Positions 1-14,728 of a stretch of DNA of 14,728 bases are shown piece after piece. The DNA is from Campylobacterota bacterium (GTDB lineage Bacteria; Campylobacterota; Campylobacteria; Campylobacterales; Sulfurovaceae): assembly GCA_034722955.1 (NCBI GenBank), contig JAYEOM010000060.1, positions 1 to 14,728 of the forward strand. Reading direction: 5' to 3'. A program made the translations under genes and the position numbers. The notes below the pieces were generated by a model that had not been told where the DNA came from, did no database searches, and was given only the letters and a program-made list of their open reading frames with translations. Every line of letters begins with the position of its first letter. Position 1 is the first letter of the stretch.

Positions 1-49
1 CCCTATGCTCTATACTATCCATATGGGTAGATTTGTTTTGTACACTTCC

Positions 50-2788
50 TTATGAAAAGATGTATAGTGAATCCCTGACACTCTCTATATCAAATGTCTC
101 TACACTATCTTGATATGCTATATCATCCAGCTCTATACTATACTCATGCTCCATATCACTTTTTAGATCTGTCAATATATCCAGTTTGTGCATCTGCACA
201 AATGTATCTTTGGTAGCTTCAAGAAGAGTATCTATATCACAGGCATGAGTCCCAAATGAGTCATGTATAGTGGCAAAAGAGTCTGTACCTTTTTTTTGTG
301 ACTCCAGAACAGTTAAAAACAGATGAGTGGCATCTAGCGAGTGGATAAAGTTGGGGGATATGCCTTTGGTCTGTTCTGTGTGATCTATCTTGTCTGTAGG
401 TATTCTGATCTGTATAGAGTATTTTTTGCCATTGTATTTTGTGGATATCTTATCTATCTTGGTCTTGAACTCTTCTTGTATCACCTCTAGTCCTATGATG
501 GGTGTCTTCCATCTCAACTCTCTGTTTTGTTTTGCTGACTTATTGGCTATCTTCTTCATCCACTCTTTATAGGTGCTCGATGATGATAGCTCTTGGCTCA
601 TAGCCTCCCCTATCTTGTCCCTTAGATATATAGAGATAGCATCTGTAGTCGCTTCATCCCATTGCAGTTTTTCTTGCAGATTGTCATTCAAATAATCTTT
701 TATCTGTGATAGTTTTGCATCGGCTCCTGCCCCATAAACTTCTGTCATGACATTTTTCTTGGTCAAATCCCTGCTAATCTCCAGATAGATTTCATCTATA
801 TATTTTTTCTCTATCCTTATCTCCGTTTTATCTTTTTTGATGATATATCCACTATCTCTATCTATCAGCTCTTTTGTCTTGATGGCAACATCTTTATAGA
901 TATCATTAGGTGTTTCTTGATCTTTTGATGGCAAAACATTGACTTTTGATGCTCCCTTTTTGTCTCGCAGGAGTGCAGTGATATGCTGGAAGCCATTGTT
1001 TGAGCCATCCATAGCTATAGGCAGAGCTGACTTGAAGTTGTCAGGATCTTCGATAAATCCTCTATACTCATAAGCAAATGCTAGAAAGCCATAGGGTTTA
1101 TCTGCCTTCCGCAAAAATGTACTATCAAATCTATCTCTGTTTGCAAAAATTCCAAGAATATCATCTTTGTGTATATCTATCCAATTGACCCTGTCATCAA
1201 AAGATATCTTGTCCTCGCCATAGAGATTTGCTCCGTGGATCTTGAACCACCTCTCACCACTCTCTCCTAGAGGCTTCTTGATAGCAAATCTCAGCAGTGC
1301 TTTTGCCAAATCGTCTCCTTGGGGATTGAGTAGTGGCTGTGCAGGGTATGTTCTGCCTCTGAAGTCTACCTGCCATACGAAGTATATCTCATCATATTTT
1401 GCATATTTTTTGGCTTTTTCGATAGTGAGTTTATCGATATTGATTTCACATTCGAGTGTACCAATGCCAGTCAGCACCTCCTGATGTGCCTCTCTCGCTC
1501 TTTTTTGTTCCTGATATTTCTCTAGGATATTTTCGTCTATCTTCTCCTCGGAAAACCCCATCTCTTCGAGCAGCTCTTTTTGTCCTTGAAGTTTTGTCTT
1601 TATCTCTTTGAGGGAGCTGTATCTTTTTTCTTTCTCTTTTTTCAGCTCTTTTATCCTCTCTTTTGCTTGCTCTTTCAGCAGCTTTAGATGACTCTCTATA
1701 TCATCGATCAGATCACTGTTTATCTGCCATTTGGTATCTTGTATTATATTGATGGCCTTGAGCAGTTTGGGGCTAAATGTCTCCCTGCGACTCTCTACAT
1801 TTTGTCCGTCTCTTTTGGTCTTTGATTTCATTATAGATAGGTCGTATTTTGGCGAGCTATCCAAATCCCTGAGAAACCCTCCATCATCTATAGTCGTCCA
1901 TGGAGTCGGGGGAACAATCATAGGTTCAAATGATGGTGGTGTATATTTGAGTATCGCATTGTATATGTTTCGGCTCTCTTTTTCAAATGCTTTGCTAAAT
2001 TTATAGTTCAGAAAGCCCCCATCTTTTTCGTACTCTTCTAAGATACCCAAATTTATCAATTCGGCAAAGAGCTCTATGGCTACATCTATCTCTGTATCGT
2101 TTTCCCAAGCCTCTATCTTGAGCTTGTCTCTTTTGAATCTAAAGGCGACATGTTCAAAGAGAGACTCTGCTATAGTATTGGTGATCCCTTGCCTGCTTGT
2201 AGAGTTGTCATCTTCGCTATGTAGATCTTTGACTAGTAAACCAGATAGAGTCTGGAGTGTTATCCATGCCACTTCACCACTGCTGAGCAGTATGGTGGCT
2301 AGAGACATAACCTGCTCTTTCTGCTTGAGCCCCAGCTCCTCTATACTGCTCTGTAGATCTACATTTTTATCTTTGAGTATTTCAAAAGTTCTCTTGATGA
2401 CAGATGCTTCGACTCTACCCTCTCTTTTGACTTTTTTAGGATTGAGACCGTAGATGGATTTGTCATTTACCTTGTCTTGCAATCCTATGGCAATATTTTT
2501 GGCTTTTTCTTTGAGATTGTAGTCTGGCAAACTCTCCTCGCCATACAGTTTGCATATCTCGCTTTTGTATCTATCGCTGATAAATATCTTCTCTATTACT
2601 TTGGGCATCTTTTTATTTCTCAGGGTACAGATCTCATCTGAGAGTCTCTTGAGATATATTTTGCTGAAGGTATCTTTGGTTGATCGTTTTTGATTTTTTG
2701 ATTTTTTGTCAATGATCTTTTGCATTTTCTCTTCAAAATCTTCGATAGTCTGTGATTGTAGTTTTAGCTGTTTTTCTCGCAGATTCAT
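50..2788 (-). CDS. T7/T3/SP6-like single-subunit DNA-dependent RNA polymerase (about 912 aa)
   Basis: All hallmark motifs are present in order: PMIVPPTPW, DFRGRTYP, LNPQGDDLAKALL, WFKIHGANLYG-DK, ADKP-FLA, motif A PIAMDGSNNGFQH, DIY, motif B RDLTKKNVMTEVYGA, PNFIHSLDATHL and motif C IHDSFGTH. Start moved from 2824 to the ATG at 2788 (MNLREK), which has AAAAGGT 7 nt upstream. Confidence 0.96.
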   Translation of the reverse strand: MNLREKQLKLQSQTIEDFEEKMQKIIDKKSKNQKRSTKDTFSKIYLKRLSDEICTLRNKKMPKVIEKIFISDRYKSEICKLYGEESLPDYNLKEKAKNIAIGLQDKVNDKSIYGLNPKKVKREGRVEASVIKRTFEILKDKNVDLQSSIEELGLKQKEQVMSLATILLSSGEVAWITLQTLSGLLVKDLHSEDDNSTSRQGITNTIAESLFEHVAFRFKRDKLKIEAWENDTEIDVAIELFAELINLGILEEYEKDGGFLNYKFSKAFEKESRNIYNAILKYTPPSFEPMIVPPTPWTTIDDGGFLRDLDSSPKYDLSIMKSKTKRDGQNVESRRETFSPKLLKAINIIQDTKWQINSDLIDDIESHLKLLKEQAKERIKELKKEKEKRYSSLKEIKTKLQGQKELLEEMGFSEEKIDENILEKYQEQKRAREAHQEVLTGIGTLECEINIDKLTIEKAKKYAKYDEIYFVWQVDFRGRTYPAQPLLNPQGDDLAKALLRFAIKKPLGESGERWFKIHGANLYGEDKISFDDRVNWIDIHKDDILGIFANRDRFDSTFLRKADKPYGFLAFAYEYRGFIEDPDNFKSALPIAMDGSNNGFQHITALLRDKKGASKVNVLPSKDQETPNDIYKDVAIKTKELIDRDSGYIIKKDKTEIRIEKKYIDEIYLEISRDLTKKNVMTEVYGAGADAKLSQIKDYLNDNLQEKLQWDEATTDAISIYLRDKIGEAMSQELSSSSTYKEWMKKIANKSAKQNRELRWKTPIIGLEVIQEEFKTKIDKISTKYNGKKYSIQIRIPTDKIDHTEQTKGISPNFIHSLDATHLFLTVLESQKKGTDSFATIHDSFGTHACDIDTLLEATKDTFVQMHKLDILTDLKSDMEHEYSIELDDIAYQDSVETFDIESVRDSLYIFS

Positions 2789-2805
2789 TGCTTTACCTTT
2801 TTGAT

Positions 2806-2827
2806 AGTTTGCACATATAGACAAAAG
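2806..2827 (+). repeat. 22-bp direct repeat copy 1, AGTTTGCACATATAGACAAAAG; candidate phage-type RNAP promoter
   Basis: Identical to 2878-2899. The CACATATA-G core resembles the T7 CACTATA-G and SP6 GACACTATA-G initiation regions. The repeat is seen directly; promoter function is inferred. Confidence 0.75.
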
Positions 2828-2877
2828 AGTCTCGTCTTAGATTTTAGATTATATCTATATTTAGTTGAGATTTCTAA

Positions 2878-2899
2878 AGTTTGCACATATAGACAAAAG
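2878..2899 (+). repeat. 22-bp direct repeat copy 2; candidate phage-type RNAP promoter
   Basis: Identical to 2806-2827, offset by 72 bp. Confidence 0.75.
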
Positions 2900-2941
2900 G
2901 TTTCAAAGCTTTGCGTCAAAATATAATACAAAGGAGAGTCA

Positions 2942-2995
2942 ATGCTATGTGAATTAGTATGCATTATAGTTAAAGAGATAGAAGAGAACCTTTAA
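2942..2995 (+). CDS. Mini-ORF A, 17 aa (MLCELVCIIVKEIEENL)
   Basis: Strong SD AAAGGAG just upstream of ATG 2942; stop TAA at 2993-2995. No recognisable homology. Confidence 0.4.
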   Translation: MLCELVCIIVKEIEENL

Positions 2996-3008
2996 CATAA
3001 AAAAATAC

Positions 3009-3049
3009 TGCCTGTGATGGCTAGAGATACTCGAAACAAAGAGTACTCA
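3009..3049 (+). repeat. 41-bp repeat R1 copy 1 (GCC-TGTGAT-GGC hairpin plus TACTC-N8-GAGTA hairpin)
   Basis: 38/41 identical to 3307-3347 by eye alignment. Confidence 0.85.
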
Positions 3050-3078
3050 TCATATTTAATACCACAAAAAGGATCCAA

Positions 3079-3165
3079 ATGATACCGATTCCAGTATGTA
3101 TACAGATTGTGACTGTTGTTGCAACAGCTGTAGCAGGGAAAAAGTTGTTGTCGGATAAAAAGTAA
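3079..3165 (+). CDS. Mini-ORF B, 28-aa hydrophobic peptide (MIPIPVCIQIVTVVATAVAGKKLLSDKK)
   Basis: SD AAAAGGA upstream of ATG 3079. About 19 hydrophobic residues followed by a lysine-rich tail, as in single-pass membrane peptides. Confidence 0.55.
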   Translation: MIPIPVCIQIVTVVATAVAGKKLLSDKK

Positions 3166-3177
3166 GGCTTATGCCTT

Positions 3178-3200
3178 TATGTGTAGCTTGAGATAGCTAT
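3178..3200 (+). repeat. 23-bp repeat R2 copy 1 (TAGCT-TGAGAT-AGCTA hairpin)
   Basis: 21/23 identical to 3590-3612. Confidence 0.8.
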
Positions 3201-3227
3201 CTACCATTTATTACAAAAGGAGCTTAA

Positions 3228-3284
3228 ATGCTGAAATTAGAAAAACTCACAACCGTTGTGCTGCCTCCGGTTCTATGGGTGTAG
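3228..3284 (+). CDS. Mini-ORF C, 18 aa (MLKLEKLTTVVLPPVLWV)
   Basis: Strong SD AAAAGGAG upstream of ATG 3228. Its start context (TACA-AAGGAG...AATGCT) mirrors mini-ORF A. Confidence 0.4.
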   Translation: MLKLEKLTTVVLPPVLWV

Positions 3285-3306
3285 TGTGTTTGCAGAGATA
3301 GTGTGT

Positions 3307-3347
3307 TGCCTGAGATGGCTAGAGATACTCAAACCAAAGAGTACTCA
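3307..3347 (+). repeat. 41-bp repeat R1 copy 2
   Basis: 38/41 identical to 3009-3049. All three differences fall in predicted loops. Confidence 0.85.
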
Positions 3348-3370
3348 AAATTTTTTTCAAAAGGATTGCA

Positions 3371-3583
3371 GTGAGAGTATCGTATCACGCGGGTGAGAGG
3401 TTTTTACAGAGGGTATTCAAGTTTAGAGACTATACCAAAAAGCAGGTTTTAAATGCTATGAAATTGATAGAGAGAGATATATCCCATATCGAGTATCGCC
3501 ATTCAAACTTTGTACTGCCCTCTTTTCCCAACTACAGATGTATCGTAGCGGACAATACTTTAGTGACCATCGTACCCAAATGA
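3371..3583 (+). CDS. Small protein D, 70 aa, possible RelE/BECR-fold (DUF4258-like) RNase
   Basis: GTG start with SD AAAAGGA. The N-terminal S-x-HA-x-ERF-x-QR and C-terminal LVTI strand are a pattern seen in small BECR-type proteins. The fold call is an inference. Confidence 0.65.
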   Translation: MRVSYHAGERFLQRVFKFRDYTKKQVLNAMKLIERDISHIEYRHSNFVLPSFPNYRCIVADNTLVTIVPK

Positions 3584-3589
3584 TGAGTC

Positions 3590-3619
3590 TATGCGTAGCT
3601 TGAAATAGCTATTTTTTTT
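3590..3619 (+). terminator. R2 copy 2 hairpin (TAGCT-TGAAAT-AGCTA) followed by T8; candidate intrinsic terminator of the mini-ORF array
   Basis: 5-6 bp stem with a T-tract at 3612-3619. It overlaps the stop codon and last Lys codons of the convergent minus-strand gene, so the T-run may partly reflect coding. Confidence 0.5.
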
Positions 3620-5426
3620 GCATTTTCAAGATCTCATCTCTAAACTCCAATATTTCACTTTTGCTGAAACTATGCTCATCAAAACCAAAAAATCCAAACC
3701 CACCCCCATAGTAGGCTTTTTGCTCCTCTACTATATGTCGAAACATTGTGACTATCTTCTCTATACCATCTCCATAGTAGTTGAGTTTGCTGTCGTTGTA
3801 GATCAGTATATTTTTACCATAGAGTCTGTCGGCTATAGGTGAAAACTTATCTGTGAATGCCTTGACTACTGTAGTATTTCCCTCTTTTTTTTGCATTTTT
3901 ATAGATTCTATCGCCAATTGCTCATCTTTTTTGGTAACTCCTTGGGCTTTTCTATCTTTTTTGCGTATCTCATCTATCTCGTTTTGGCTTGCACCAAACT
4001 CTCTCATAGCTGGTATGTATCCGCTGTCATTGAGGGCTATGAGCATCTCCTGCCTGCTCAGTTGTACCCCTAGCGTATCAGCTACCTGTTCCAGTGAACT
4101 CTTGTTTTTTTGTTTCTCATTGTGGTGGTCTATAGTTAGATAGTTTGCCGGTAGTTCTATATCTTCTATGAGTTCTATACCTATATATAGATAGTTGTTT
4201 TTGAGTCGGTCGCTATAGCTACCGAGCTTTGCCCCCCATGATAGAGAGTGATCATAGTAGACTTGAGCATATCTATCTAGCAGCTTTTTGATAGTTCTCA
4301 TCTCCAGGTCATATCCGCCGAGTAGAAAAACTCTCTTTTTTAGTTGGAAAAATGGTGATATCTTTTTGTGAAATTTCTTTGTACCAAAGGTATGGGCATT
4401 GTATATCTCTATACTATTTGTGATCGCTCTGAGTTTTGCATTTTTGCCAAACAGTGTTTTGGGTTTTTGTATTTTGTGGCTATTGTCAGGATATATATTG
4501 ATGATCATATTTTTGCTGTCATCACCGAAGTATCCCAGCAGGGAGTCGCTCTTGTAGATGATATCCTGAGCTGATATATTGTCTCCGAGTTTGCACTCTA
4601 TGGTATAGATATGGTTCTCCTTGATAGCCAGTATATCAAACTCGTTGAATATCTCTATATCATAGGGATCATCCTCTGCAGAGTCAAAGAGCAGTACCGC
4701 ACCCACTTTAATATCGTCAAAATCGTAACACAAAAGGCTAAGATAGGTAAACTCCTCAAACAGCGTACCAAAATAACTGATATTTCTCAATGCCCTGTAG
4801 TCACTCCCTATCATACCTAGATCTATAAGAGCCTCTATCTGCCCAGGGTATGCAGAGGCTATCGCCTGTAGTCTGTTCTGGTGCAGGTATCTCCTGATCC
4901 TAAAGAGGATATTGAAGTCGCCAAAGAGCAGCAGCAGTGACTTTTTTTTGCTCAATATCTTCGCTTTATCTATCTCATTGGTGAGTTGATAACCCAGAGA
5001 GAGTACAAAGTCATCTACCATCATGTTGTGGGTGATAGTGTGACTGCCAAATCCACTCTCATCTATCAGATTGTAGCTATTTTCGAACTTGTCATAGGCT
5101 ACTATCTTGCCCCCATTGTGTAGGATAGACCCAGAGAGTACGACTAGCAGTGCGGTATCTGCATTGGTGGCATTGAGATAGAGTTCTGTAGTATCGATAC
5201 CATTGATATGGTTTTGGATGGAGAGCATATCTGCCTTGGAGTCCTCGTCTACCTCTATGAGCTCCACCTCTTGTGCTAGTGATACTATCCATCTCTGTAT
5301 CTTGAGTGCATAGTGCTTCTCTTTGTCGTCGTAGATGAGTATATGTTTGGTTGTTCTATCTATAAATTCAAAGATGATGGGTACAAGCTCGTGGAGGTCT
5401 CTGCTGATGATAGTGATGAGTGTCAT
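3609..5426 (-). CDS. Fusion of a Card1/Can2-like CARF + PD-(D/E)xK nuclease (DUF1887-like) with a C-terminal NrN-like DHH phosphodiesterase (about 605 aa)
   Basis: N-terminal Rossmann/CARF-like start MTLITIIS...LYLNATNAD. Nuclease motifs GTLFEEF and NEFDILAIKENHIYTIECKLG. From about 4340 a second domain: RVFLLGGYDLEM, LSWGAKL, IDHH, SSLEQVA, NDSGYIPAM, DRKAQGVT. The ATG at 5426 is preferred because the 5630 start would overlap corA. Confidence 0.75.
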   Translation of the reverse strand: MTLITIISRDLHELVPIIFEFIDRTTKHILIYDDKEKHYALKIQRWIVSLAQEVELIEVDEDSKADMLSIQNHINGIDTTELYLNATNADTALLVVLSGSILHNGGKIVAYDKFENSYNLIDESGFGSHTITHNMMVDDFVLSLGYQLTNEIDKAKILSKKKSLLLLFGDFNILFRIRRYLHQNRLQAIASAYPGQIEALIDLGMIGSDYRALRNISYFGTLFEEFTYLSLLCYDFDDIKVGAVLLFDSAEDDPYDIEIFNEFDILAIKENHIYTIECKLGDNISAQDIIYKSDSLLGYFGDDSKNMIINIYPDNSHKIQKPKTLFGKNAKLRAITNSIEIYNAHTFGTKKFHKKISPFFQLKKRVFLLGGYDLEMRTIKKLLDRYAQVYYDHSLSWGAKLGSYSDRLKNNYLYIGIELIEDIELPANYLTIDHHNEKQKNKSSLEQVADTLGVQLSRQEMLIALNDSGYIPAMREFGASQNEIDEIRKKDRKAQGVTKKDEQLAIESIKMQKKEGNTTVVKAFTDKFSPIADRLYGKNILIYNDSKLNYYGDGIEKIVTMFRHIVEEQKAYYGGGFGFFGFDEHSFSKSEILEFRDEILKMQKK

Positions 5427-5486
5427 ATCGCTACTTTTTAATTTAATTTTATCCAAAAGTGCTATCATAAGAGCTAAAGGATTTGT
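5427..5486. promoter_or_regulatory. 60-bp divergent promoter region between the CARF-nuclease/NrN gene and corA
   Basis: Plus strand: extended -10 TGcTATCAT at 5460-5468 and SD AAAGGA at 5476-5481. Minus strand: -10-like TATGAT (5469-5464) and TAAAAT (5451-5446). Confidence 0.5.
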
Positions 5487-6767
5487 ATGCCACAAGATAT
5501 ATATAGTTGCCATACTTTTATGTTGCCATTTATCATAGAGTGCTATGATCACAAGAGAGAGATCATCGAAGCCAAAAGCTGGCAATATAAGGAACACAAA
5601 GACAACTATAATGAGATAGCATATTTTCATAGCTTCTTCAAAGATAGTATGTTTACCAAAGATAAGGATGCAAACTCTTCATTTTATACCAAAGATGAGT
5701 ATAGGGATAGTCAGTTTGTCATCAGCAGATCAAAAGAGTATGAATTAAATCTTAAAAGTGTAAACCTTAGAGTGTTTAAGACAGGTGTAGGGATATTATC
5801 TTTTCATATAGAAAATAGATCATATTCAGATATCAAAGATATCCTGGAAATCAATGACTATGGCAGGAGAATCTATCCCGAATATTTAGATGAAAAACTC
5901 CAATGCACTCTTGTCCCAAACTATATTCGATTAAAAGATATAAAAGAAGATTTTAGATACGATCAACAACCCACAAAAATAAAACTCTCAAAAATCATAA
6001 CAGAGTTTCTACCAGAAGAGAAAATAAGAACAGCCATAGATGATAGAATGTTCGTTATAAGTTTTTACAAAAACAGTAGTTTTTCAAATGATCTGAAAAG
6101 AGATTATATGAAAAATAGTAAGTGGTATGAGTATATTTTCATAGATGGAAATGGTCTCAATGTCCAAAATCGTGAAATGCAAAACAATCTAGTCAAAAAA
6201 GCCACCTATCCCAGATGGCAGGGCTATGGTACTATGTATGGTATCAGCAGATACTCTTTTGTATGTGTGGCAGATGAGAGTGAGTTTATCAGAGAGACTG
6301 TTGAGGTGCATATGCAGACGATCTATTTTCAGATGTTTTCTCTACTCTTGATGCTGAGGGCTACTATATTGAAGTTCTCCAAAGAGGTGAGTGATATAGC
6401 TAAAGAGATAGACACTAAAGGCACAGATATTAAAGTCGAAGATCTATACAAACGATATATACAGTTCGTAAATAGCTTCTACTTCAGAGAGATAACAGCC
6501 AAAGACCAAGGTCTAGAGCTATATGATCAAGCTAGAGAGATACTGAGGATAGATAGTGACATCAAAGACTTGGACAATGAGATAGGGGAATTGCATAGAT
6601 ATGTCTCAATGATAGAGGGCAATGAGAATACCAAAAAAATGGATAGATTGCAATATTGGGGTTTTCCTCTGCTCTTTTTGTCTCTTATCACTGGTTTTTT
6701 TGGTATGAATATATTCCCACAAGGCTTTTTAGACACCATATCCAATTGGCTTAAAGCGTTATTTTAA
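5487..6767 (+). CDS. corA: CRISPR type III-associated CorA-family membrane effector
   Basis: Large soluble N-terminal domain (IDDRMFV, TYPRWQGYGTMYGISRYSFV, YFREITAKDQGLELY), then a TM helix ending in the CorA signature ITGFFGMN. First gene of the cmr operon. Confidence 0.88.
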   Translation: MPQDIYSCHTFMLPFIIECYDHKREIIEAKSWQYKEHKDNYNEIAYFHSFFKDSMFTKDKDANSSFYTKDEYRDSQFVISRSKEYELNLKSVNLRVFKTGVGILSFHIENRSYSDIKDILEINDYGRRIYPEYLDEKLQCTLVPNYIRLKDIKEDFRYDQQPTKIKLSKIITEFLPEEKIRTAIDDRMFVISFYKNSSFSNDLKRDYMKNSKWYEYIFIDGNGLNVQNREMQNNLVKKATYPRWQGYGTMYGISRYSFVCVADESEFIRETVEVHMQTIYFQMFSLLLMLRATILKFSKEVSDIAKEIDTKGTDIKVEDLYKRYIQFVNSFYFREITAKDQGLELYDQAREILRIDSDIKDLDNEIGELHRYVSMIEGNENTKKMDRLQYWGFPLLFLSLITGFFGMNIFPQGFLDTISNWLKALF

Positions 6768-6776
6768 GGAAAAAAA

Positions 6777-7787
6777 ATGAACAAAAGTAAATTTAAGGCA
6801 GAGTTCACACTGAAACAGCACACCCCAATCATCCATTTCCAGAGTGGTCAGAACGGAGCAACGCTGAGGGCTACAGAGTTGAAACCGAAGTTTGACAGGT
6901 TTTTATTGCACAATGTTGAAGATATCCCATTCATCAAAAATGCCAATGGACACAAATCATTGGATTATAAAGTAACTATTGCAATAAATGGGCAAGGGGT
7001 TAAAGGCACTCCCAACAACTTTTTGTATTTTGCCAATAATTCAGCTCAAGGAGATGAATTTAAATACACTATCAAAAGTCAGAGTGTTATCGTTACTTTC
7101 TTTTCATACAGAACTGATTTGATAGAATCAATAAATAGATATTTTAATGATTTTTTACTGATTACAAACTTTGGATCCAGAAGTACAAAAGGGTATGGTA
7201 GTTTTGGTAAAAGTATAGAGAATGCTGAAACTGTATTAAGAAAATATTATCCAATTGTCTTCAAGATAACAAATGTTGGCGACATAAGTAAATGGGAAGT
7301 TAAAGTTGACACTATTCACAAAAAATTAAAATCTGGAATCAATTTCATACAATATCATAAATCTTTACTTTTCCAATACATGTGTACCCAAAACATTAGA
7401 TGGGAAAAGAGAAATATCAAAGAGAAGTTTTCAGTTTTAGCAACAGGAAAGCCCCCGATAGACTGCGATACAAGAGGTCAATATAGATATATCAGAGCGA
7501 TGTTGGGAACTGCCGGTATCAATGAATATGACAGAGGTAACAAAACTGTAACGATAGATGGTGGAGAGATAGAGAGGTTTGCCTCTCCAATTATTTATAA
7601 AATTATTGGAAACAGCATATATCTTCTAGGAGATAAAAGTTATGAAAAGATAATGGGTAAACCTTTTATTTTTCAGTATAAACAAAGCAGTTTCACCATT
7701 AATACACCATCCAAAAGTGAATTTGATTTGCATAAATTTTTAAAGTTTGTAGAGAAAAATGACAATATAATCAGTGAGGTAAAATAG
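6777..7787 (+). CDS. cmr1: Type III-B RAMP Cmr1 (B. fragilis-like)
   Basis: LKQHTPIIHFQ...ATLRATELKPKFDRFL N-terminus, G-rich loop NFGSRSTKGYGSF, ERFASPI; lies directly before cas10. Confidence 0.85.
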   Translation: MNKSKFKAEFTLKQHTPIIHFQSGQNGATLRATELKPKFDRFLLHNVEDIPFIKNANGHKSLDYKVTIAINGQGVKGTPNNFLYFANNSAQGDEFKYTIKSQSVIVTFFSYRTDLIESINRYFNDFLLITNFGSRSTKGYGSFGKSIENAETVLRKYYPIVFKITNVGDISKWEVKVDTIHKKLKSGINFIQYHKSLLFQYMCTQNIRWEKRNIKEKFSVLATGKPPIDCDTRGQYRYIRAMLGTAGINEYDRGNKTVTIDGGEIERFASPIIYKIIGNSIYLLGDKSYEKIMGKPFIFQYKQSSFTINTPSKSEFDLHKFLKFVEKNDNIISEVK

Positions 7788-9056
7788 ATGACCTACATAG
7801 CACTAACCATAGGACCGATATACAAGACACTGGCAAATGCCAAGAATCCCAAAGAGCTTTTTGCAAGTAGCTATATCTTTAGCTATATTATGAGAAATAT
7901 CATCAAAGAGTTCAAGAGTAGAGAGTTTGTCATCCCCTATATAAAAGATGACTCTATCTTTGATGAGAGCAGTAAAGTGGGTCTTTTTCACGACAGATTT
8001 ATTTTTAAGTCACAAGAGCAAGAGAGTGATATCTATAAACTAAAAAGAGTCATTGAAAATATCTCAAAAGATACAGCATCCAAGCTAGGGTTGAATCATA
8101 AAGATGTAGAAGAGTATCTACAGATAAATTATTTGGCAAAAGAGATAGGTGATGAAAATCCCATAGAAGCACTCAGCCCCTATCTAGATACAAAAGAGCT
8201 TTTTTATCAACTCTCTTCTAGTGATAGCTTTATCTCATCTCTTAGCAGAAAAAAGGGAGACAGAGATAATTTTCTTACAGCCAATAAAAATATCATAGAT
8301 GATTTGAAGAAGCTTTCGTATCATAAATACTACTGTGTCGTGCATGCCGATGGTGACAAGATGGGCGAAGCTATCAAAGATAAAGCCAATATAGAAAATA
8401 TCTCCAAAAGTCTTTTTGGTTACTGTATGGAGTCAAACCATCTCATACGAGAGTTTGGAGGTCAAACCATCTTTGCAGGGGGTGATGACTTGATGTTTAT
8501 AGCACCTACGATCTCAAGAGATAGAACAAAAACTATTTTTGACTTATGCGAAGATATATCACAAAGTTTCAACATAGATAAGGCAACACTGAGTTTTGGT
8601 ATCAGTATAAACTATATAAAATATCCACTCTATGAAGCAGTAGAAAACTCAAGAGAGTTACTTTTTGACAAAGCAAAAAATGAGCAGAGAAACAACATAG
8701 CCTTCAATATCACAAAACACAGCGGTCAAAGCTTCAGTACTGTGATACACAAAGGTGATGATGAAATTTACAGTAAATTTTTAGCTTTTACCTCAAGTGT
8801 AAATGACAAAGACAATATCGGTAACTTCCTAGACTCAATACATCACAAGATAGCTACATATGAAACCACATTGTCAAATATCAAAAATGACAAAACCAAA
8901 CTAACAAACTTTTTTGTTAACTACTTCAATAAAGATGAGCATAAAAATAACAAAGAGTTTTTTGATCATTTAGTGGATTTCATCTATGTAGCAACCATAG
9001 AACAAGTCTATACAACACTTAGATTTATCAAGTTTATTCAAGGAGATAAGTCATGA
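7788..9056 (+). CDS. cas10: Cas10/Cmr2, compact, no HD domain, intact GGDD palm
   Basis: YIALTIGPI...ELFASSYIFS, YCVVHADGDKMG, IFAGGDDLMF, TLSFGISI..KYPLYEA. Confidence 0.95.
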   Translation: MTYIALTIGPIYKTLANAKNPKELFASSYIFSYIMRNIIKEFKSREFVIPYIKDDSIFDESSKVGLFHDRFIFKSQEQESDIYKLKRVIENISKDTASKLGLNHKDVEEYLQINYLAKEIGDENPIEALSPYLDTKELFYQLSSSDSFISSLSRKKGDRDNFLTANKNIIDDLKKLSYHKYYCVVHADGDKMGEAIKDKANIENISKSLFGYCMESNHLIREFGGQTIFAGGDDLMFIAPTISRDRTKTIFDLCEDISQSFNIDKATLSFGISINYIKYPLYEAVENSRELLFDKAKNEQRNNIAFNITKHSGQSFSTVIHKGDDEIYSKFLAFTSSVNDKDNIGNFLDSIHHKIATYETTLSNIKNDKTKLTNFFVNYFNKDEHKNNKEFFDHLVDFIYVATIEQVYTTLRFIKFIQGDKS

Positions 9057-9376
9057 TAGATATTGAAAAAATAAAAAAAGATATTCCTGTAATGCTGAAA
9101 TCTTTAGATATAAACAAAATCATCCTTTTTGGCAGTTATGCTTATGGAACCCCTCACAAAGACAGTGATTTGGATATCTGTATAGTTGAAGAAAAGGTAG
9201 TGTCAAAAATGCAAGAAAAGAGAGAGATCAGAAAACTTCTTGGCGAGATAGATATGCCAATGGATATTATTCTAGTAGATGAAGATTACTATCAAACTCA
9301 TAGTGATAAAAATTGGATAAATACTGCCCTATATGATGCCAGACAAAAAGGAGAGATTTTATATGAAAAAGAATGA
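9053..9376 (+). CDS. Minimal nucleotidyltransferase (MNT) antitoxin-like protein
   Basis: IILFGSYAYG...DSDLDI Pol-beta motif plus a third Asp in MDII; 107 aa. Confidence 0.9.
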   Translation: MIDIEKIKKDIPVMLKSLDINKIILFGSYAYGTPHKDSDLDICIVEEKVVSKMQEKREIRKLLGEIDMPMDIILVDEDYYQTHSDKNWINTALYDARQKGEILYEKE

Positions 9377-9767
9377 TATAAAAAATAGTGCCGATCTATT
9401 TTTGTATAAAGCAATAATTGATTTCAATACTGCAAAAGCTATTTTTAAAAGCTTTGAAAATGATGATATTGAGATATATATAGAAAAAATATATTTTGAT
9501 TTGCAGCAAAGCAGTGAAAAGCTTCTCAAAAACCTTCTATCCAAAAATGGTGTAGATGTTCCAAAGATTCACGATATAAAGCAATTAATAAGAGTTTGTG
9601 AAAAAAACAATATCAATCTTATGAGTAGAGTAGAGGTATTGATAGATTTGAGTGATTATGCAGTGGAAGGTCGCTATGACATTATCTGTGATGATATATC
9701 AAATAGTGATCTCTATTTTGAATTGGTAGAACAGTTTATAATATTTGTAAAAGGAGACAAAGCATGA
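9363..9767 (+). CDS. HEPN-domain protein (MNT-HEPN pair)
   Basis: FDLQQSSEKLLK...VPKIHDIKQL...DYAVEGRY fits the HEPN family consensus (F-x-x-QQ-x-x-EK-x-LK...P-x-x-HD...RY). ATG 9363 with a GGAG SD is preferred over 9333. Confidence 0.85.
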   Translation: MKKNDIKNSADLFLYKAIIDFNTAKAIFKSFENDDIEIYIEKIYFDLQQSSEKLLKNLLSKNGVDVPKIHDIKQLIRVCEKNNINLMSRVEVLIDLSDYAVEGRYDIICDDISNSDLYFELVEQFIIFVKGDKA

Positions 9768-10729
9768 GATATCTAGTCACGCTTACACCACTAGAGCCTT
9801 TTCTGTTCGGAGGAGATACGACTTTTGGCAAGAAGGGCGATGAGGAGAAAGGCACCTATCTGGTCAAATCACGGCAATTCCCTCAACAGAGTGCAGTTTT
9901 GGGGATGCTCAAAAAAGAGATCATGACCCAGTCAGGAGTTTTGACACGCAAAGTGAGAGGTGAATGGGTAGATAAGCAGAAGAAAAAAGAGGCAGAAGCT
10001 CTAGTAGGAGTTGAAAAATTTGATATAGGCTCTGAAGGTTTACAGGATTTTGGTATTATCAAATCTCTTGGTTCGATCTTTTTGATACAGGAGCAAAAAC
10101 AATATATCAAAAAAGTAGATATTGATTCTTATACTTACAAAGATGGCTTACTAGAAAGCTATAATCCAGAAATAGATATTTATGATAATTTTGTAGAGAC
10201 AAAAACAAGTGAAAAATTATCATCAGGCGATATCTTCAAACCCATAGAGCAGACAGGCAACAAGACAGGAGGAGAGGATGACTCACTCTTCAAAAAAACC
10301 TCCTATCTACTAAAATATGATTTCAAGTTTGCATTTTATCTTGAGTGCGAGTATGAGTTGAGAGACTCCATCATCCATCTAGGAGCAGACAGAAGCAGCT
10401 TCAAGCTGGAGATCAGAGAGGATAATGACAGTTTGGAGTATAGTGATGAAAATGGCTATTTGACACTCATGAGCGATGCCTATATCACTCTACCTATCAA
10501 AGAACATTGTGTTTTTGCTATTACTAGTGAGATAAGTTTCCAGAGCTTACAGAACAAAAAGCATGCGACCAAGAGTAATGCATTTCAAAAAAGTACAAAA
10601 ATATTTCTCTATGAGAAAGGTTCAGTTTTTATAAACCCATCGGATGAACTAGTAAAAAACCTAAACAATAAAAACTGCCAACGGATCGGTTACAATAAAC
10701 ACACTTACGAAAAAGGACAAAATAGATGA
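9764..10729 (+). CDS. cmr3: Cmr3 (Cas5-family RAMP)
   Basis: YLVTLTPLEPFLFGG, S..FPQQSAVLGML, LGADRSSF, LYEKGSVF, IGYN; position in the operon. Confidence 0.9.
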   Translation: MRYLVTLTPLEPFLFGGDTTFGKKGDEEKGTYLVKSRQFPQQSAVLGMLKKEIMTQSGVLTRKVRGEWVDKQKKKEAEALVGVEKFDIGSEGLQDFGIIKSLGSIFLIQEQKQYIKKVDIDSYTYKDGLLESYNPEIDIYDNFVETKTSEKLSSGDIFKPIEQTGNKTGGEDDSLFKKTSYLLKYDFKFAFYLECEYELRDSIIHLGADRSSFKLEIREDNDSLEYSDENGYLTLMSDAYITLPIKEHCVFAITSEISFQSLQNKKHATKSNAFQKSTKIFLYEKGSVFINPSDELVKNLNNKNCQRIGYNKHTYEKGQNR

Positions 10730-11574
10730 AAACAGAACTATACACCATAGAGACACTCAGCAACCTCCATGTAGGAGCAGGGGATATCAACTTTGATGTC
10801 ATAGACAACCAAGTGCAGAGAGATGCCATCACCAACCTGCCCAATATCAATAGCAGTAGTCTAAAGGGTGCCTTTAGAGAGCATTTCACACAGTATGATA
10901 GTGATGGCAAAAAGCTGGATGATACACTGATGGTCAAGTATATCTTTGGAGGTGCCAATGATGATGAGAACTCTCATGCTACAGGAGCCTATAGTTTCTT
11001 TGAGGCACAGCTACTTACTCGACCAGTACGAAGCGATGCCAAGCCATACTTCAACGCTACAAGCCCCTCAGTCATCAAGAGTCTGTTAGATACGATAGAA
11101 AATTTCGATATAGAGTTTAATAAAGAATTAACACAAGCACTTACAAACCTTTCAAAGTTGAATCCTCAAAAAAATAATCCTATTATCTTTGAAGATATTC
11201 CAAAGACCAGACTCGAAGATGATCCAGCCAAATATCAAAACTTTGATGTCTCGAAACTTACAGAATTTTTAGGTGTTGATCTTGCACTCTTTGCAGATAG
11301 TGATTTCGCAGAATTAGACCTGCCTGTACTAGCTAGAAATGCACTCGAAAATGGAGTGAGCCAAAACCTCTGGTATGAAGAGGTCGTACCCAAAAAGTCC
11401 AAGTTTTTCTTCTGCATCGGCAAACCAAATATAGACAATACAGACCCAAAAGATTATGATCAGAAGATCAAAGGGTTTGAAAACAGATTTGGCACAGAGG
11501 GTCACAAAGTACAGTTGGGAGCCAACAAATCCATAGGGTATGGATTTAGTCTGGTCAAAAAGGTATCGTTATGA
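10726..11574 (+). CDS. cmr4: Cmr4 (Cas7-family backbone RNase)
   Basis: LHVGAG...VIDNQVQRD...PNINSSSLKGAFRE, ARNALENGVSQNLWYEEVVP, QLGANKSIGYG. Confidence 0.95.
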   Translation: MKTELYTIETLSNLHVGAGDINFDVIDNQVQRDAITNLPNINSSSLKGAFREHFTQYDSDGKKLDDTLMVKYIFGGANDDENSHATGAYSFFEAQLLTRPVRSDAKPYFNATSPSVIKSLLDTIENFDIEFNKELTQALTNLSKLNPQKNNPIIFEDIPKTRLEDDPAKYQNFDVSKLTEFLGVDLALFADSDFAELDLPVLARNALENGVSQNLWYEEVVPKKSKFFFCIGKPNIDNTDPKDYDQKIKGFENRFGTEGHKVQLGANKSIGYGFSLVKKVSL

Positions 11575-11957
11575 GCAAGAAGAGCATAGAGAGGTATATA
11601 CCCAAGGCGATAAAGGTGTTGGATGCTACTTTTGATGACGGTGTTATCCCATCAGCTTACAATGGATATATATCTTCATTTGGTGCGAGTGTGATGCAGA
11701 GTGGACTGCTACCTACGCTAGCACTATTTGAAAATACCAATGCCTCCACAAAGGAGAACAAAGAGTATCTATCGTATCTCATAGTCAATATCCTAAGAGA
11801 CAACAGAGATGATGTTTCACTCCTGAGAGAGGTATTGGTTAGAGAAGAGCGTGGAGAGAGTCGCAACCATCTCAAAGAGCAGATACTAGATATATCTATA
11901 GCCATCAAGTTAAGTATCAGAACTTTCAAGCTCAAAAAAGGTGATAAAGATGAGTAA
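11571..11957 (+). CDS. cmr5: Cmr5 (Cas11 small subunit)
   Basis: 128 aa, helical, YNGYISSFGASVMQSGLLPTLA; lies between cmr4 and cmr6. Confidence 0.88.
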   Translation: MSKKSIERYIPKAIKVLDATFDDGVIPSAYNGYISSFGASVMQSGLLPTLALFENTNASTKENKEYLSYLIVNILRDNRDDVSLLREVLVREERGESRNHLKEQILDISIAIKLSIRTFKLKKGDKDE

Positions 11958-12900
11958 TCCAAATCTAGGTTGGCTCTTTTATAAGGATTATTTCACCGCT
12001 ATAAGAGACTGGACCAATCCAAAAGCAAATGAAAAGGATATATCCAGAAAAGTAGATGAGTTGATAAAAAAAACTCCAACCATAAAAGAGACAGAGATAC
12101 TAGGCTCTACACACTTCAAAGCTACCACTACTTATCCAGGACTGCTGCTAGGCAGCGGCAATGCACATGAATTGCCAGGTATTGAAGGTCAAGCCATATT
12201 GGGCTTTCACTTCGACTACACCAGCGGATTGCCCATCATCCAAGGCTCATCTATCAAGGGAGTGCTGAGAAGTGCGTTCAGACATTGGGAATATATAGCA
12301 GAGATCGGGGGTGAGACTTTAGTCTCACTGATAGATGTAGAGAACTTGGAAAGAGAGATATTTGACAACGGTGATATATTTTTCGATGCACAGATCATCA
12401 GTGGCGGCAGGATACTAGGCGATGACTACATCACACCACACGGTGACGATCTACTCAAGAATCCCATACCCCTGAGATTTATCAAAGTCCTGCCCAATGT
12501 GACATTTAGGTTTGATTTTGAGTTGAGTGACGGGATTTTGGAAAAGGATAAAAAAATCATACTCTTTACTAAAATAATAGAAGATTTAGGAGTAGGAGCA
12601 AAAACCAATGTAGGGTATGGGAAGTTTGATATAGAGGATATGGAGCAACAGATAAAAAAGGAGCAACAAAAACTCAAGAGAGAAGAGGCGGAGAGTAGAG
12701 TAACTAGTGCTAATGATGACTACAGTAAAGCCATCGCACTAATAGATGCCACTATAAAATTGGACAATAAGCTTTTTAAAAATTTACGAGATGAAGTTGA
12801 ACTAGATAGCCATGAAAAGAGCAAGGTCAAAGAACATTTTGATAGCAAATTTGAGGGTGATAGTAAATTTAAAAACAGGATACACAAGATATTAACTTAA
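11950..12900 (+). CDS. cmr6: Cmr6 (RAMP)
   Basis: NLGWLFYK, YPGLLLGSG, GFHFDYTSGLPIIQGSSIKGVLRS, DYITPH, NPIPLRFIKV, GVGAKTNVGYG. ATG 11950 is preferred over GTG 11941. Confidence 0.93.
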   Translation: MSNPNLGWLFYKDYFTAIRDWTNPKANEKDISRKVDELIKKTPTIKETEILGSTHFKATTTYPGLLLGSGNAHELPGIEGQAILGFHFDYTSGLPIIQGSSIKGVLRSAFRHWEYIAEIGGETLVSLIDVENLEREIFDNGDIFFDAQIISGGRILGDDYITPHGDDLLKNPIPLRFIKVLPNVTFRFDFELSDGILEKDKKIILFTKIIEDLGVGAKTNVGYGKFDIEDMEQQIKKEQQKLKREEAESRVTSANDDYSKAIALIDATIKLDNKLFKNLRDEVELDSHEKSKVKEHFDSKFEGDSKFKNRIHKILT

Positions 12901-12946
12901 TATTTTGCTCAAGAAAGGTATTTTGTCATTGGGAGAAAACACACTT

Positions 12947-12967
12947 TATGTATGTTATAATACATAC
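12947..12967 (+). promoter_or_regulatory. Extended -10 promoter TGtTATAAT (12953-12961) within an inverted repeat (GTATGT-TATAAT-ACATAC); likely TA operator
   Basis: Perfect TATAAT flanked by 6-bp inverted arms, about 30 bp upstream of the antitoxin GTG with its SD AAGGAG. Confidence 0.7.
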
Positions 12968-12990
12968 TATTTATCAGAAGGAGAGCAAAA

Positions 12991-13227
12991 GTGACCATAC
13001 GAAAAAACTTTACTATGTCAGACTCTGTTGTGATGGATTTGGAATATCTCGCTAAAAAATTGCACAAAAAACAGTCTCAAGTGATACAAGAGCTTATAGT
13101 CCATAAAATGAAAGAGTTTGAAAAAGAAAAAAAACTAGATATGCTGGAGAAGATATCGGGAATATTTACGGGCAAGATACCTGAAGACATATCGATACAA
13201 TCCATAAAGTCAGATAGTGAAAATTAG
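12991..13227 (+). CDS. Ribbon-helix-helix (CopG/VapB-like) antitoxin
   Basis: N-terminal strand IRKNFTMS followed by two helices (..LEYLAKK..KQSQVIQELI); overlaps the PIN gene. Confidence 0.75.
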   Translation: MTIRKNFTMSDSVVMDLEYLAKKLHKKQSQVIQELIVHKMKEFEKEKKLDMLEKISGIFTGKIPEDISIQSIKSDSEN

Positions 13228-13648
13228 AAGGATTTTTTTTGATGCCAATATTTTCAACGATATATTTGATGAAAACAGAGTCCATCATAACTCTAGCAAA
13301 GAGTCTTTGCTCTATGCTCTGCAAAATGATATAAGATGCTGTACCAGTTGTGATATAGTTACCAATATCTACTACATAACTGCCAAATACACTTCAAAAA
13401 ATCAAGCATTGGATGCCCTTGACTACCTAAAAGAGATAGTGGAGATCATCCCTTTTTCTTACGAAGAACTCACCATTGCGATAGATCTGATGAAGAGAGA
13501 CGGTGAGTATAAGGATATGGAGGATACTATACAGTATATTTTAGCTATAGAGCAGCATTGTGACTTGATCATCTCAAATGATAAACGATTTGTCTCTAAA
13601 GAGATAGAGTGCGTAAGCAGTGATGATTTTGCAAATTCTCGCAGATAG
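13217..13648 (+). CDS. vapC: PIN-domain (VapC-like) toxin
   Basis: IFFDANIFND, DMEDTIQY, IISNDKRF acidic PIN motifs; 143 aa. Confidence 0.88.
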   Translation: MKIRRIFFDANIFNDIFDENRVHHNSSKESLLYALQNDIRCCTSCDIVTNIYYITAKYTSKNQALDALDYLKEIVEIIPFSYEELTIAIDLMKRDGEYKDMEDTIQYILAIEQHCDLIISNDKRFVSKEIECVSSDDFANSRR

Positions 13649-13656
13649 AAAAGTCA

Positions 13657-14728
13657 ATGTATACAAAACCTCTCTCCTACATCACCCTCCCGTCAGCTCT
13701 CAAGGATGCCTACGAGGAGATCAGCAAGCTCTCCAGTGGACTTGATGAGGTGAGCTATGCAGAGTTCGAGAGGGAGCTTGGCAAAAATATAGCACAACTA
13801 TCACAAAGACTCCAAAGCGGACTCTACTCCCCAGAACCACTCAAAAAGATAGAGATAGACAAGCCAAACTCTGATGAGAAGCGCCCCATAGCCCTATCTG
13901 CCATCAAAGACAAGATAGTCCAGAGAGTGCTATATAAAAATCTAAATCCATACTTTGACAAGCTCTTCTCTGACAAATCCTACGCCTACAGACCTGACAA
14001 ATCTACCATAAAAGCGATCAATAGAACTACGGATTTCCTGAACAAAAAGAGACTGCATATCGTCAAGACCGATATCGACGATTTTTTTGAAACTATAGAC
14101 CATGATATACTTCTAGAGATACTCGATACTCATATCTCAGACAAAAGCATCACGCGGCTCATATCACTCTTTGTGCAGGTGGGAGGGTTTCAAAACTTTG
14201 ACTATAGTAGCCATCTGCAGGGCATCCATCAGGGGGATATACTCTCCCCGCTCCTCTCCAATATCTATCTGGATGTTATGGATAGATTTCTAGAGAAGCA
14301 TGATATCGCTTTTGTGAGATATGCCGATGACTTTGTAATGCTCTTTAAGAGCAAAAATGAAGCCTATGGTACCCTCAAAGAGTTGAGAAAATTTCTCAAA
14401 ACCATAAAGCTGACTCTCAACAAAGAGAAGACCAGCGTCACACATATCAGTGATGGTTTTGACTTTTTAGGTATAGAGTTCAAAGGCAGAAACAGGCATA
14501 TCCAAAACGAAAGACTCCAAAGATCCGTATCCAAGATAGCCCAACTCTCCAAGACAAAGCTGGGATTTGCAGCGTTTACCAAAGAGCTAAACAGCTATCT
14601 ACTGTCGCTCAAAAACTACTATCTCAAGATACTCACACCCAATGCCCCACAACACAAGCTACTCCAGGATGCCCTCATAGCTACCCTATCACACAAAGTT
14701 TATCTCTCCAAAAAGTCAAAAGAGATCA
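13657..14728 (+). CDS. Group II intron-like CRISPR-associated reverse transcriptase, 3'-truncated by the window edge (probably RT-Cas1)
   Basis: Hand translation from ATG 13657 stays open to the window end: SSGLDEVS (RT0), IDKPNSDEKRPIAL, KDKIVQ, SYAYRP, KTDIDDFFETIDH, GIHQGDILSPLLSNIYL, FVRYADDF (YADD at 14320-14331), FDFLG. The Cas1 part is not visible and is inferred from context. Confidence 0.92.
   Translation, partial: MYTKPLSYITLPSALKDAYEEISKLSSGLDEVSYAEFERELGKNIAQLSQRLQSGLYSPEPLKKIEIDKPNSDEKRPIALSAIKDKIVQRVLYKNLNPYFDKLFSDKSYAYRPDKSTIKAINRTTDFLNKKRLHIVKTDIDDFFETIDHDILLEILDTHISDKSITRLISLFVQVGGFQNFDYSSHLQGIHQGDILSPLLSNIYLDVMDRFLEKHDIAFVRYADDFVMLFKSKNEAYGTLKELRKFLKTIKLTLNKEKTSVTHISDGFDFLGIEFKGRNRHIQNERLQRSVSKIAQLSKTKLGFAAFTKELNSYLLSLKNYYLKILTPNAPQHKLLQDALIATLSHKVYLSKKSKEI

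Follow-up and report, generated by a model that had tools for sequence, protein, structure and literature searches.

Single-subunit RNA polymerases have been described in phages and organelles and on a few plasmids, and the extracytoplasmic function (ECF) sigma pair DdvS/DdvA is reportedly a dedicated transcription factor tied to type III CRISPR. In the CalpL-CalpT-CalpS system sigma release is wired to type III CRISPR, according to PMC11229360, and the main text of Chi et al. 2023 (PMC10600005) has the type III-B CRISPR-Cas systems with CorA and NrN using S-adenosylmethionine-AMP (SAM-AMP) signalling and reports nrn-corA fusions in Aliarcobacter butzleri. Full-text literature searches brought up no paper on a link between type III CRISPR and a T7-type polymerase, or between such a polymerase and an array of peptide genes such as the one analysed here; the term 'RNA polymerase' occurs 0 times in the main texts of PMC10600005, PMC11229360 and PMC6546367, the supplements of which may list accessory clusters. 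Here we analyse JAYEOM010000060.1, a complete contig of 14,728 bp (the whole stretch studied, below the window; contig C60) from a Campylobacterota assembly of 2.5 Mb and 99.97% completeness (G000). In it a gene for a T7-type single-subunit RNA polymerase stands back to back with an array of four mini open reading frames (ORFs A to D) punctuated by repeats, beside a CorA/NrN type III-B locus. We read the array as the half that is expressed in an orthogonal, self-contained unit for transcribing micro-protein genes, probably a CRISPR accessory, and give this reading a probability of about 0.68. That the polymerase and the array form an expression unit we regard as well supported by the sequence comparisons below; a functional link to CRISPR is favoured with less assurance.

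The earlier note on this DNA, a reading of its letters and ORFs, had placed in the array four co-oriented mini-ORFs with Shine-Dalgarno (SD) sites, alternating with two kinds of repeat in the order A-R1-B-R2-C-R1-D-R2, and all of these elements are present where it put them. On the plus strand, ORF A (2942-2995) encodes 17 amino acids (aa) starting MLCELVCII and including two Cys; ORF B (3079-3165) encodes 28 aa with a hydrophobic segment and a Lys-rich tail; ORF C (3228-3284) encodes 18 aa with a C-terminal LPPVLWV; and ORF D (3371-3583) encodes 70 aa from a GTG start. ORFs A and C, which fall under the 20-aa floor of the ORF list, were read from the sequence and by script. AAAGGA occurs 13 times on both strands of the window, against a shuffle mean of 13.2. 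Four of these copies (2930, the SD of ORF A, 3068, 3216 and 3360) lie within the 690-bp array, all on the plus strand and each 5-6 nt before a mini-ORF start. The two copies of R1 (R1a, 3009-3049; R1b, 3307-3347) are identical at 38/41 positions (92.7% over 41 nt) and those of R2 (3178-3200 and 3590-3612) at 21/23. Against the whole genome, R1 is significant by blastn-short (E 7e-9); R2 alone, at E 1.7, is not, yet it is conserved in relatives. Neither has further copies elsewhere in the 2.5 Mb.

The polymerase gene (53-2790, minus strand, stop at 50-52) encodes 912 aa from the ATG at 2790. The protein matches Pfam PF00940 (E 6.8e-94 over residues 517-903) and PHROG phrog_414 'RNA polymerase' (E 1.5e-164), and its translation contains apparently intact catalytic motifs, DGSNNGFQH, TKKNVMTEVYG and IHDSFGT, which we take to be the T7 motifs A, B and C, assigned without alignment to T7. 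Its clade comprises about 22 members at 33% identity or more, nearly all of them unnamed, and the closest polymerase in IMG/VR is 32% identical. A consensus scan over 2700-3700 returned a sole sigma-70-like promoter (TAGAAA-17-TATAAT, 2848-2876, minus strand), one site against a shuffle mean of 3.7 and hence not above expectation; by position only, it could be the host promoter of the polymerase gene. It lies outside the ORFs and is the one minus-strand promoter-like site in that interval, in a scan that can miss an antisense promoter.

Between the polymerase start and ORF A are two identical 20-mers on the plus strand, which the earlier note had not picked up (P1, 2808-2827; P2, 2880-2899; 0 such pairs expected in 200 shuffles). 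P1, an instance of what we call class 1 (..GCACATATAGACAAAAG), has a T7-like TATAG core and a predicted +1 at G2820; for P2, 43 nt upstream of ORF A, the predicted +1 is G2892. The CATATAG core and the A-rich stretch after it resemble the initiation region of T7-group promoters. P1 aligns with 10 further instances from four other loci. In all there are 12 class-1 sites in five loci, with the common sequence ..GACATATAGAMAAA, and seven sites of a second class in three genomes, with the common sequence TTCCCAAGTAGTGACTAAAGAG. A search of the whole G000 genome at up to three mismatches gave the two array sites and a single further match (contig C93), which lies within a 645-aa gene and was dismissed as chance. 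In two related genomes, G117 and G097, the class-2 motif occurs three times each, always in the array. As with T7-group promoters, a repeat of about 20 bp stands before the units and is restricted to what would be the polymerase's own targets. We infer that the 20-mers act as promoters of the polymerase, whose apparent regulon would be the array alone. The idea that they might also drive cas genes or CRISPR arrays was rejected, no additional promoter copy being present in G000, G117 or G097; a promoter-like start of contig C120 was likewise discarded, as it runs into an unrelated contig resembling an insertion sequence (IS).

The earlier note had proposed comparing the locus across related genomes, and this comparison found repeats and ORF families conserved and the order of the cargo variable. 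The array occurs at nine further loci in relatives and metagenomes, with polymerases 30-77% identical to that of the window; it accompanies the polymerase at all ten loci and recurs wherever members of the polymerase clade turned up with flanking DNA. Nine arrays were analysed in full by script, and the tenth (in genome G351) is cut by a contig end. A single-protein scan of genome contigs returned one locus. The carriers include a same-genus genome, G006, with two copies (G006a, 86% identical in DNA, and G006b, with a polymerase 33-41% identical), a metagenome-assembled genome (MAG) titled uncultured Nitratiruptor, the metagenome contigs L021, L022 and L023, and genomes G117, G097 and G351 from other families of the order. 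On G006 contig C175 (L017, about 3400-3520) we noticed by eye a long inverted repeat, almost perfect, that separates the start of the second polymerase gene from the first promoter-like site of that gene. The gene order is A-B-C-D in the window, G006a and L022, A-C-B-B-E-D in L021, D-B-E-C in G117 and D-B-A-C in G097. The idea of constant punctuation with variable cargo holds in part: a small set of peptide families is shuffled between loci, with duplications and losses.

These families are short and distinctive. Family A peptides are of a CxxxC type (13-19 aa), family B reads MIPIP.. hydrophobic ..KK (20-28 aa), family C ..LPPxxW.. (15-23 aa) and family E, absent from the window, ..ICI(C)F.. 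(8-11 aa). ORF A has homologs in G006a, L022, L021, the Nitratiruptor MAG, G006b, G097 and G351; families B and C are present in all nine arrays analysed, and a B start is also found in G351. Judged by reading, peptide B of the window, with about 19 hydrophobic residues in a row and KK at its tail, is a small hydrophobic peptide of the kind found in type I toxin-antitoxin systems. The B peptides have no Pfam match. The ESM Atlas gave just Campylobacterota clusters without names, one viral cluster (0.88) and DUF3781 (0.86), all below the trusted level. In metagenome runs X1-X3 a minor variant diverges inside ORF A at position 2976 (regions compared: 2947-2976 and 3079-3196), and separate low-identity contigs of the same runs hold a paralogous ORF B start with an R2-like piece, so that there are more such units in the same community.

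Across loci whose polymerases are 30-60% identical, the peptide families hold their frame, start, SD spacing and residues. Values of non-synonymous relative to synonymous change (pN/pS), from Nei-Gojobori counts on homologous ORF pairs, are 0.13-0.27 for ORF B in 7 of 10 pairs, 0.12-0.18 for ORF C in all five computable pairs and 0.26 for ORF D. For ORF A, G006a and L022 encode the same 13-aa peptide with three synonymous changes and 0 non-synonymous ones. This is the pattern of coding-type selection: judged by their substitutions, the mini-ORFs evolve as translated genes.

The repeats themselves carry a structure that the earlier note had overlooked, as the 5' part of R1 and R2 is one and the same hairpin motif. 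Hairpin 1 is a stem of 3-6 bp capped by a U-GNRA-U loop, in which the tetraloop is always GNRA (GAGA, GUGA, GCGA, GAAA or GUAA); R1 has in addition hairpin 2, with an A-rich loop of 8 nt. All copies in the window lie on the plus strand. In R1a, hairpin 1 spans 3010-3021 (GCC-UGUGAU-GGC) and hairpin 2 pairs 3024-3032 with 3041-3048; in R1b the corresponding positions are 3308-3319 and 3322-3330 with 3339-3346. R2a, taken as 3164-3200, opens with a small AAGGC..GCCUU hairpin (3164-3177), followed by a variant of hairpin 1 at 3183-3200 (GUAGCU-UGAGAU-AGCUAU). In R2b (3590-3619) this variant occupies 3595-3612 and is followed by T8, overlapping the stop of the convergent gene. R2b with its T8 is likely the terminator of the array; the same hairpin and T-run close the arrays of G006a, L021, L022 and L023, and the last hairpin of each array has a T-run after it.

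Over 23 copies of R1, 84.6% of cells pair in the proposed structure against 22-48% with slid partners, and the covariation score of 0.394 compares with 0.188 in shuffles, 0 of 500 reaching it. Seven of the eight pairs of hairpin 2 show compensatory changes, RNAalifold recovers both R1 hairpins unaided, and single-sequence folds agree. Among the 40 copies of hairpin 1, 24 have C-G as the closing pair and 13 have U-A, and in G117 and G097 the middle pair is switched as well, to G-C or U-A. The hairpin-1 pattern is found 44 times on the sense strand and twice on the antisense strand in 8,809 nt (shuffle mean 3.9, maximum 10); three of the 44 sense hits fall within ORFs, probably by chance. The elements run ORF-hairpin-(promoter)-SD-ORF in the class-1 loci and ORF-promoter-hairpin-SD-ORF in G117, G097 and G351. 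Since hairpins precede or follow the promoter depending on the locus, we regard them as elements of the transcribed spacer and not as terminators of fixed position. No Rfam 15 family matched at gathering score over the window, or at E<=1 over 2780-3660.

Two other identities for the repeats were considered and set aside. R1 starts GTTGCC, and one copy ends GAAAC, like a CRISPR repeat; the real repeats on contigs C43 and C109 differ, the GAAAC end is not conserved, and the array has two repeat types, with 'spacers' that are conserved ORFs of 8-77 codons. The CUGA.. of R1 recalls a hammerhead core, an identity rejected on the fourth loop base, which varies between A, U and C, and on the negative Rfam result.

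ORF D belongs to a small family. Against 1.84 billion representatives its profile has 56 hits at E<=1e-3, each a cluster representative and all of 55-146 aa, with His6 and Arg14 invariant in the alignment; members within arrays have 70-77 aa. No Pfam, NCBIfam, PADLOC or PHROG model matched ORF D, the Pfam models of RelE, ParE, HigB and YoeB matched 0 of 52 family members at E<=1, and a profile search of the PDB gave unrelated chains only (E>=0.15). Its AlphaFold (AF2) model, with a mean predicted local distance difference test (pLDDT) of 94.7, has a helix-helix-three-strand topology, a predicted alpha-alpha-beta3 fold. Members of the RelE/ParE superfamily set two N-terminal helices against an antiparallel sheet of 3-4 strands, a layout that the model shows as well. 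Structure searches with it returned ParE, RelE, HigB, PrpT, PfiT, colicin D and CdiA-CT, recurrently and weakly: by title, about 16 of the top 20 VIA-align rows are ParE, RelE, PrpT, PfiT, colicin D or CdiA-CT, at Z scores of just 3.4-5.1. On this modelled fold ORF D is possibly an RNA-binding or RNA-cutting protein of RelE/ParE-like shape. The gene that precedes it varies by locus (C, E, A, B, an orphan or none), and because there is no fixed gene upstream, D does not form a classic toxin-antitoxin pair. Where there is no polymerase, the D family may have a different partner: in L080 (G124:C43, 979-2397) and L081 (G320:C53, 8031-9530) the distant D homolog comes after a gene for a 470-500-aa protein that contains CxxC motifs and is similar in the two.

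The unit abuts or lies inside a CorA/NrN type III-B locus in all seven loci with enough flanking DNA (the window, G006a, L021, L022, G117, G097 and G351), with CorA, NrN, Cmr and Cas10 genes within about 2 kb at each of them and in at least three gene orders; the earlier note had not seen this CRISPR link. In the window the divergent polymerase and the array face a convergent gene (3609-5630, minus strand, 673 aa) for a CARF-PD-(D/E)xK nuclease fused to a CorA-associated DHH phosphodiesterase (NrN), with PADLOC matches to CARF4--CARF_PDDEXK (1.2e-42) and DHH_CorA (3.1e-73). In G097 the polymerase lies downstream of a CARF-nuclease ORF, and a convergent array and an NrN-CorA fusion follow, and in G117 the polymerase has an IS-like gene at its flank; nrn-corA fusions are found in both G117 and G097. 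The G097 CARF-PD-(D/E)xK nuclease ORF (379-1566 of L079, contig C47) shares 13 nt (1554-1566) with the polymerase ORF (1554-4802), and this overlap suggests that the two are co-transcribed. Domain scans found no CARF, SAVED or similar sensor of a Cas10 signal in the polymerases or in ORF D; the longer polymerases, considered as carriers of an extra sensor domain, showed just an insertion within the polymerase domain, and no signal-sensing link between the polymerase unit and the type III system was found.

Prevalence was estimated from an even sample of 401 genomes of the order, of which 4 have the polymerase, 12 ORF D and 18 CorA. Of the four polymerase genomes, three also have CorA, next to the polymerase, and the fourth is an 85%-complete MAG with its polymerase on a 2.3-kb contig. 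Polymerase and peptide array are present in 4 of the 18 sampled CorA genomes. Adjacency to type III effectors is seen across diverged genomes and gene orders, in a sample that is small and partly related. From these genome comparisons we describe the unit as an optional, conserved companion of the order's CorA/NrN type III-B loci.

The rival that survives best, which we consider unlikely, is that the unit is a stranded mobile-element fragment or passenger: a phage-like early region with no role in CRISPR, placed here by defence-island clustering or insertion preference and perhaps in conflict with its host. Its parts (polymerase, promoters, small early genes) are the ones that make up a T7-group early region, G006 has two diverged copies, contigs break at these loci in several assemblies, and paralogous pieces occur on metagenome contigs. 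In G117 (L078, contig C39) an IS3-like transposase frame of the orfA type (1-300, minus strand), recognised by eye, flanks the polymerase gene. There is also a spacer-like match: nucleotides 1-38 of G000 contig C109, which adjoin a 37-nt CRISPR repeat, resemble the promoter-proximal leader of the G006b array, with a local alignment score of 20 against 11-14 for the other 11 spacers and a mean of 12.6 (maximum 17) in 200 shuffles. As the upstream cas2 shows, the C109 array is read leftwards, and the CRISPR RNA (crRNA) could pair with leader RNA of the sense strand. On this evidence it seems that related units are at times handled as foreign, or else that an adaptation module linked to reverse transcriptase samples their abundant RNA. 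Against an origin as mobile passenger, integrase, replication, structural and lysis genes are absent at all ten loci, the unit has neither other phage genes nor plasmid or recombinase genes with it, no IMG/VR polymerase exceeds 32% identity, and the mini-ORFs are under purifying selection. The polymerases diverge about as much as the adjacent cas genes do (33-59% vs 32-67% identity), which suggests long co-inheritance, and the linkage outlasts at least three rearrangements, including the overlap with the CARF nuclease gene. The far flank of L021 consists of rplU and housekeeping genes. The hairpin-1 15-mer hits at least 116 stretches of IMG/VR; all 80 loci listed are single matches as expected by chance, and none is array-like.

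Far less probable is an integron-like system in which mini-genes are captured and reordered and R1 and R2 serve as DNA recombination sites, a likeness raised by the earlier note. The variable order and copy number of the cassettes with kept punctuation, the hairpins and the greater similarity of repeat copies within a locus than between loci all recall such a system. The likeness fails on mechanism. No tyrosine or other recombinase is encoded in the window (14 ORFs scanned) or in related loci (13 ORFs scanned in L021), and the repeats are strand-specific, RNA-type hairpins of 12-41 nt. attC sites are long imperfect palindromes, far longer than the conserved unit here, a GNRA stem-loop of 12-18 nt. 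The motif keeps to the coding strand (44 vs 2) and, before or after the promoter, always to the transcribed spacer, as for an RNA signal. On this comparative evidence R1 and R2 are RNA elements and not DNA recombination sites.

The least credible rival, that A to C are chance frames in a structured non-coding RNA or a decaying tandem duplication, could point to the 17-18 codons of A and C, to the lack of any database family for the peptides and to the lack of a public RNA run with the stretch, and it fails on the frame, start, SD spacing and residues kept at 30-60% polymerase identity with mostly synonymous change and on the want of any Rfam match even at E<=1. The single decaying tandem duplication, which the earlier note had named as a way its own reading might fall, is excluded because the selection pattern of A to D is that of translated genes, and because A and C, like B and D, are unrelated families, each conserved where the polymerase is about 30-40% identical, a layout that one duplication cannot give.

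Several results weigh against reading the region as the expressed half of a polymerase-driven unit that serves CRISPR. On the transcript side, no public RNA run was found to contain the stretch, which bears on promoter use and translation alike. The folding energies of the spacers are ordinary (z -2.66, -0.20, +0.35 and -1.16), so the case for the hairpins rests on covariation; for hairpin 1, moreover, the slid control at -3 pairs 72% against 76%, the motif being partly palindromic, and most of the covariation is a single difference between R1 and R2. On the protein side, three ORF B pairs, those with a duplicated second copy in L023, have a pN/pS of 0.41-0.69, the fold matches of ORF D are weak (Foldseek E>=0.7, Z<=5.1), and eight genomes that lack the polymerase have more distant D homologs (30-40% identity). 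As for the CRISPR linkage, it rests on few, related genomes, three of the ten loci end too soon to have an informative flank, and in 14 of the 18 CorA genomes the stretches covered contain neither polymerase nor ORF D nor array, which makes the unit dispensable for a CorA type III-B system. The C109 spacer match, taken by itself, fits an invader better than a partner.

With these reservations, the earlier proposal that the adjacent RNA polymerase drives a small-peptide transcript punctuated by repeats fits the evidence from T7-like promoter repeats, co-occurrence at ten loci and coding-type evolution. In the orthogonal expression unit that we favour, host RNA polymerase would transcribe the chromosomal gene of the single-subunit enzyme, which would in turn fire from P1 and P2 (G2820 and G2892), away from its own gene, to give one RNA of about 0.8 kb that carries A to D and ends at the R2b hairpin and T-run (about 3619). 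The micro-proteins A, B and C and the small protein D would each be made from their own SD site. The hairpins would mark cistron boundaries as signals for processing, stability or partial termination, and their repetition may supply the homology for recombinational reshuffling of cassettes. The membrane-type micropeptides and the RNase-like protein would then act with or downstream of type III-B CorA immunity; our preferred guess is an expression channel immune to shut-off of the host RNA polymerase, which would deliver membrane-active peptides together with an RNase-like protein. A role of the products as toxins or in abortive infection is doubtful. Also speculative, and to our minds improbable as a whole, is the boldest version: a new type III CRISPR ancillary module in which a host-domesticated T7-type polymerase provides a channel proof against phage shut-off, its sole targets being a GNRA-hairpin micro-operon of membrane-active micropeptides and a RelE-like RNase that would execute or tune a CorA/SAM-AMP abortive response, with the hairpins recognised by ORF D or by the polymerase.

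If the favoured reading is true, a chromosomal polymerase dedicated to its private micro-operon would amount to a natural system of orthogonal expression inside a bacterium. The repeated finding of the unit in CorA/NrN type III-B loci suggests that a transcription machine belongs to some CRISPR systems, which would bear on what, besides the CorA channel, executes immunity of the SAM-AMP type. The locus also offers resources: four or five conserved micro-protein families of 8-28 residues, a compact two-hairpin RNA motif with invariant loop bases and two new polymerase/promoter pairs as possible tools, with the whole unit under 4 kb.

The rest of the window is taken up by type III-B CRISPR-Cas genes on the plus strand (5487-14727): CorA, Cmr1, Cas10b, a pair of MNT and HEPN genes, Cmr3-6, a PIN-domain protein and a reverse transcriptase whose gene is open at the 3' end. 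Taken at their longest, the ORFs of the divergent CARF-NrN and CorA genes share 144 nt (5487-5630); the true start of the CARF-NrN gene is probably further downstream than its longest ORF implies, because it is only from about residue 61-69 that homologs align with the 673-aa protein. Cas10 (7788-9056) has just 422 aa, with matches to Cmr2_N and palm2 and none to the HD domain, which is consistent with a CorA-type system that would do signalling only. The MNT nucleotidyltransferase and HEPN gene pair (9053-9767) interrupts the operon between cas10 and cmr3, and a VapBC-like layout (12991-13648), a 78-aa ORF and then the PIN-domain protein, separates cmr6 from the reverse transcriptase gene. 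A search for tRNA and tmRNA genes in the window found none.

Set beside described systems, the products of the array recall small toxins in part. Peptide B resembles a single-pass membrane peptide, as among the hydrophobic type I toxins of under 60 aa, and the ORF D model weakly matches ParE, RelE, HigB and colicin D; unlike in such systems, the consensus scan showed no antisense RNA promoter over the ORFs, no antitoxin gene was found, there is no conserved gene upstream of D, and the proteins belong to none of the toxin families. With integron arrays the locus shares co-oriented small cassettes, conserved hairpin punctuation and variable order and content. It differs in having no integrase and no attC-sized sites, in a cargo drawn from five families and in punctuation that is RNA-like.

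The resemblance to a T7-group phage module goes further. Both have a polymerase of the PF00940/phrog_414 family, short promoters, conserved and repeated ahead of small genes, in which the start region is TATAG or TAAAG, inter-cistron hairpins and a terminal hairpin with a U-run. The unit described here, in contrast, is chromosomal with no other phage gene alongside, its promoter set is confined to a transcription unit of less than 1.5 kb, its polymerase is about 30% identical to any homolog on viral contigs, and its peptides and ORF D belong to no phage family. Inter-cistron hairpins of T7-group phages are long RNase III sites, whereas those of the array are short stems with GNRA caps.

Among CRISPR systems, the neighbours in the window (CorA, the DHH phosphodiesterase NrN, Cmr1-6, Cas10b and a reverse transcriptase at the adaptation end) are those of a CorA/NrN type III-B system, to which the polymerase and the peptide array are an addition. 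Like Calp and DdvS/DdvA, the locus encodes what would be a private transcription device together with type III genes. The devices themselves differ: theirs are sigma factors that redirect the host polymerase, whereas the one in the window is a complete, unrelated polymerase with putative promoters of its own and a fixed cargo of micro-genes.

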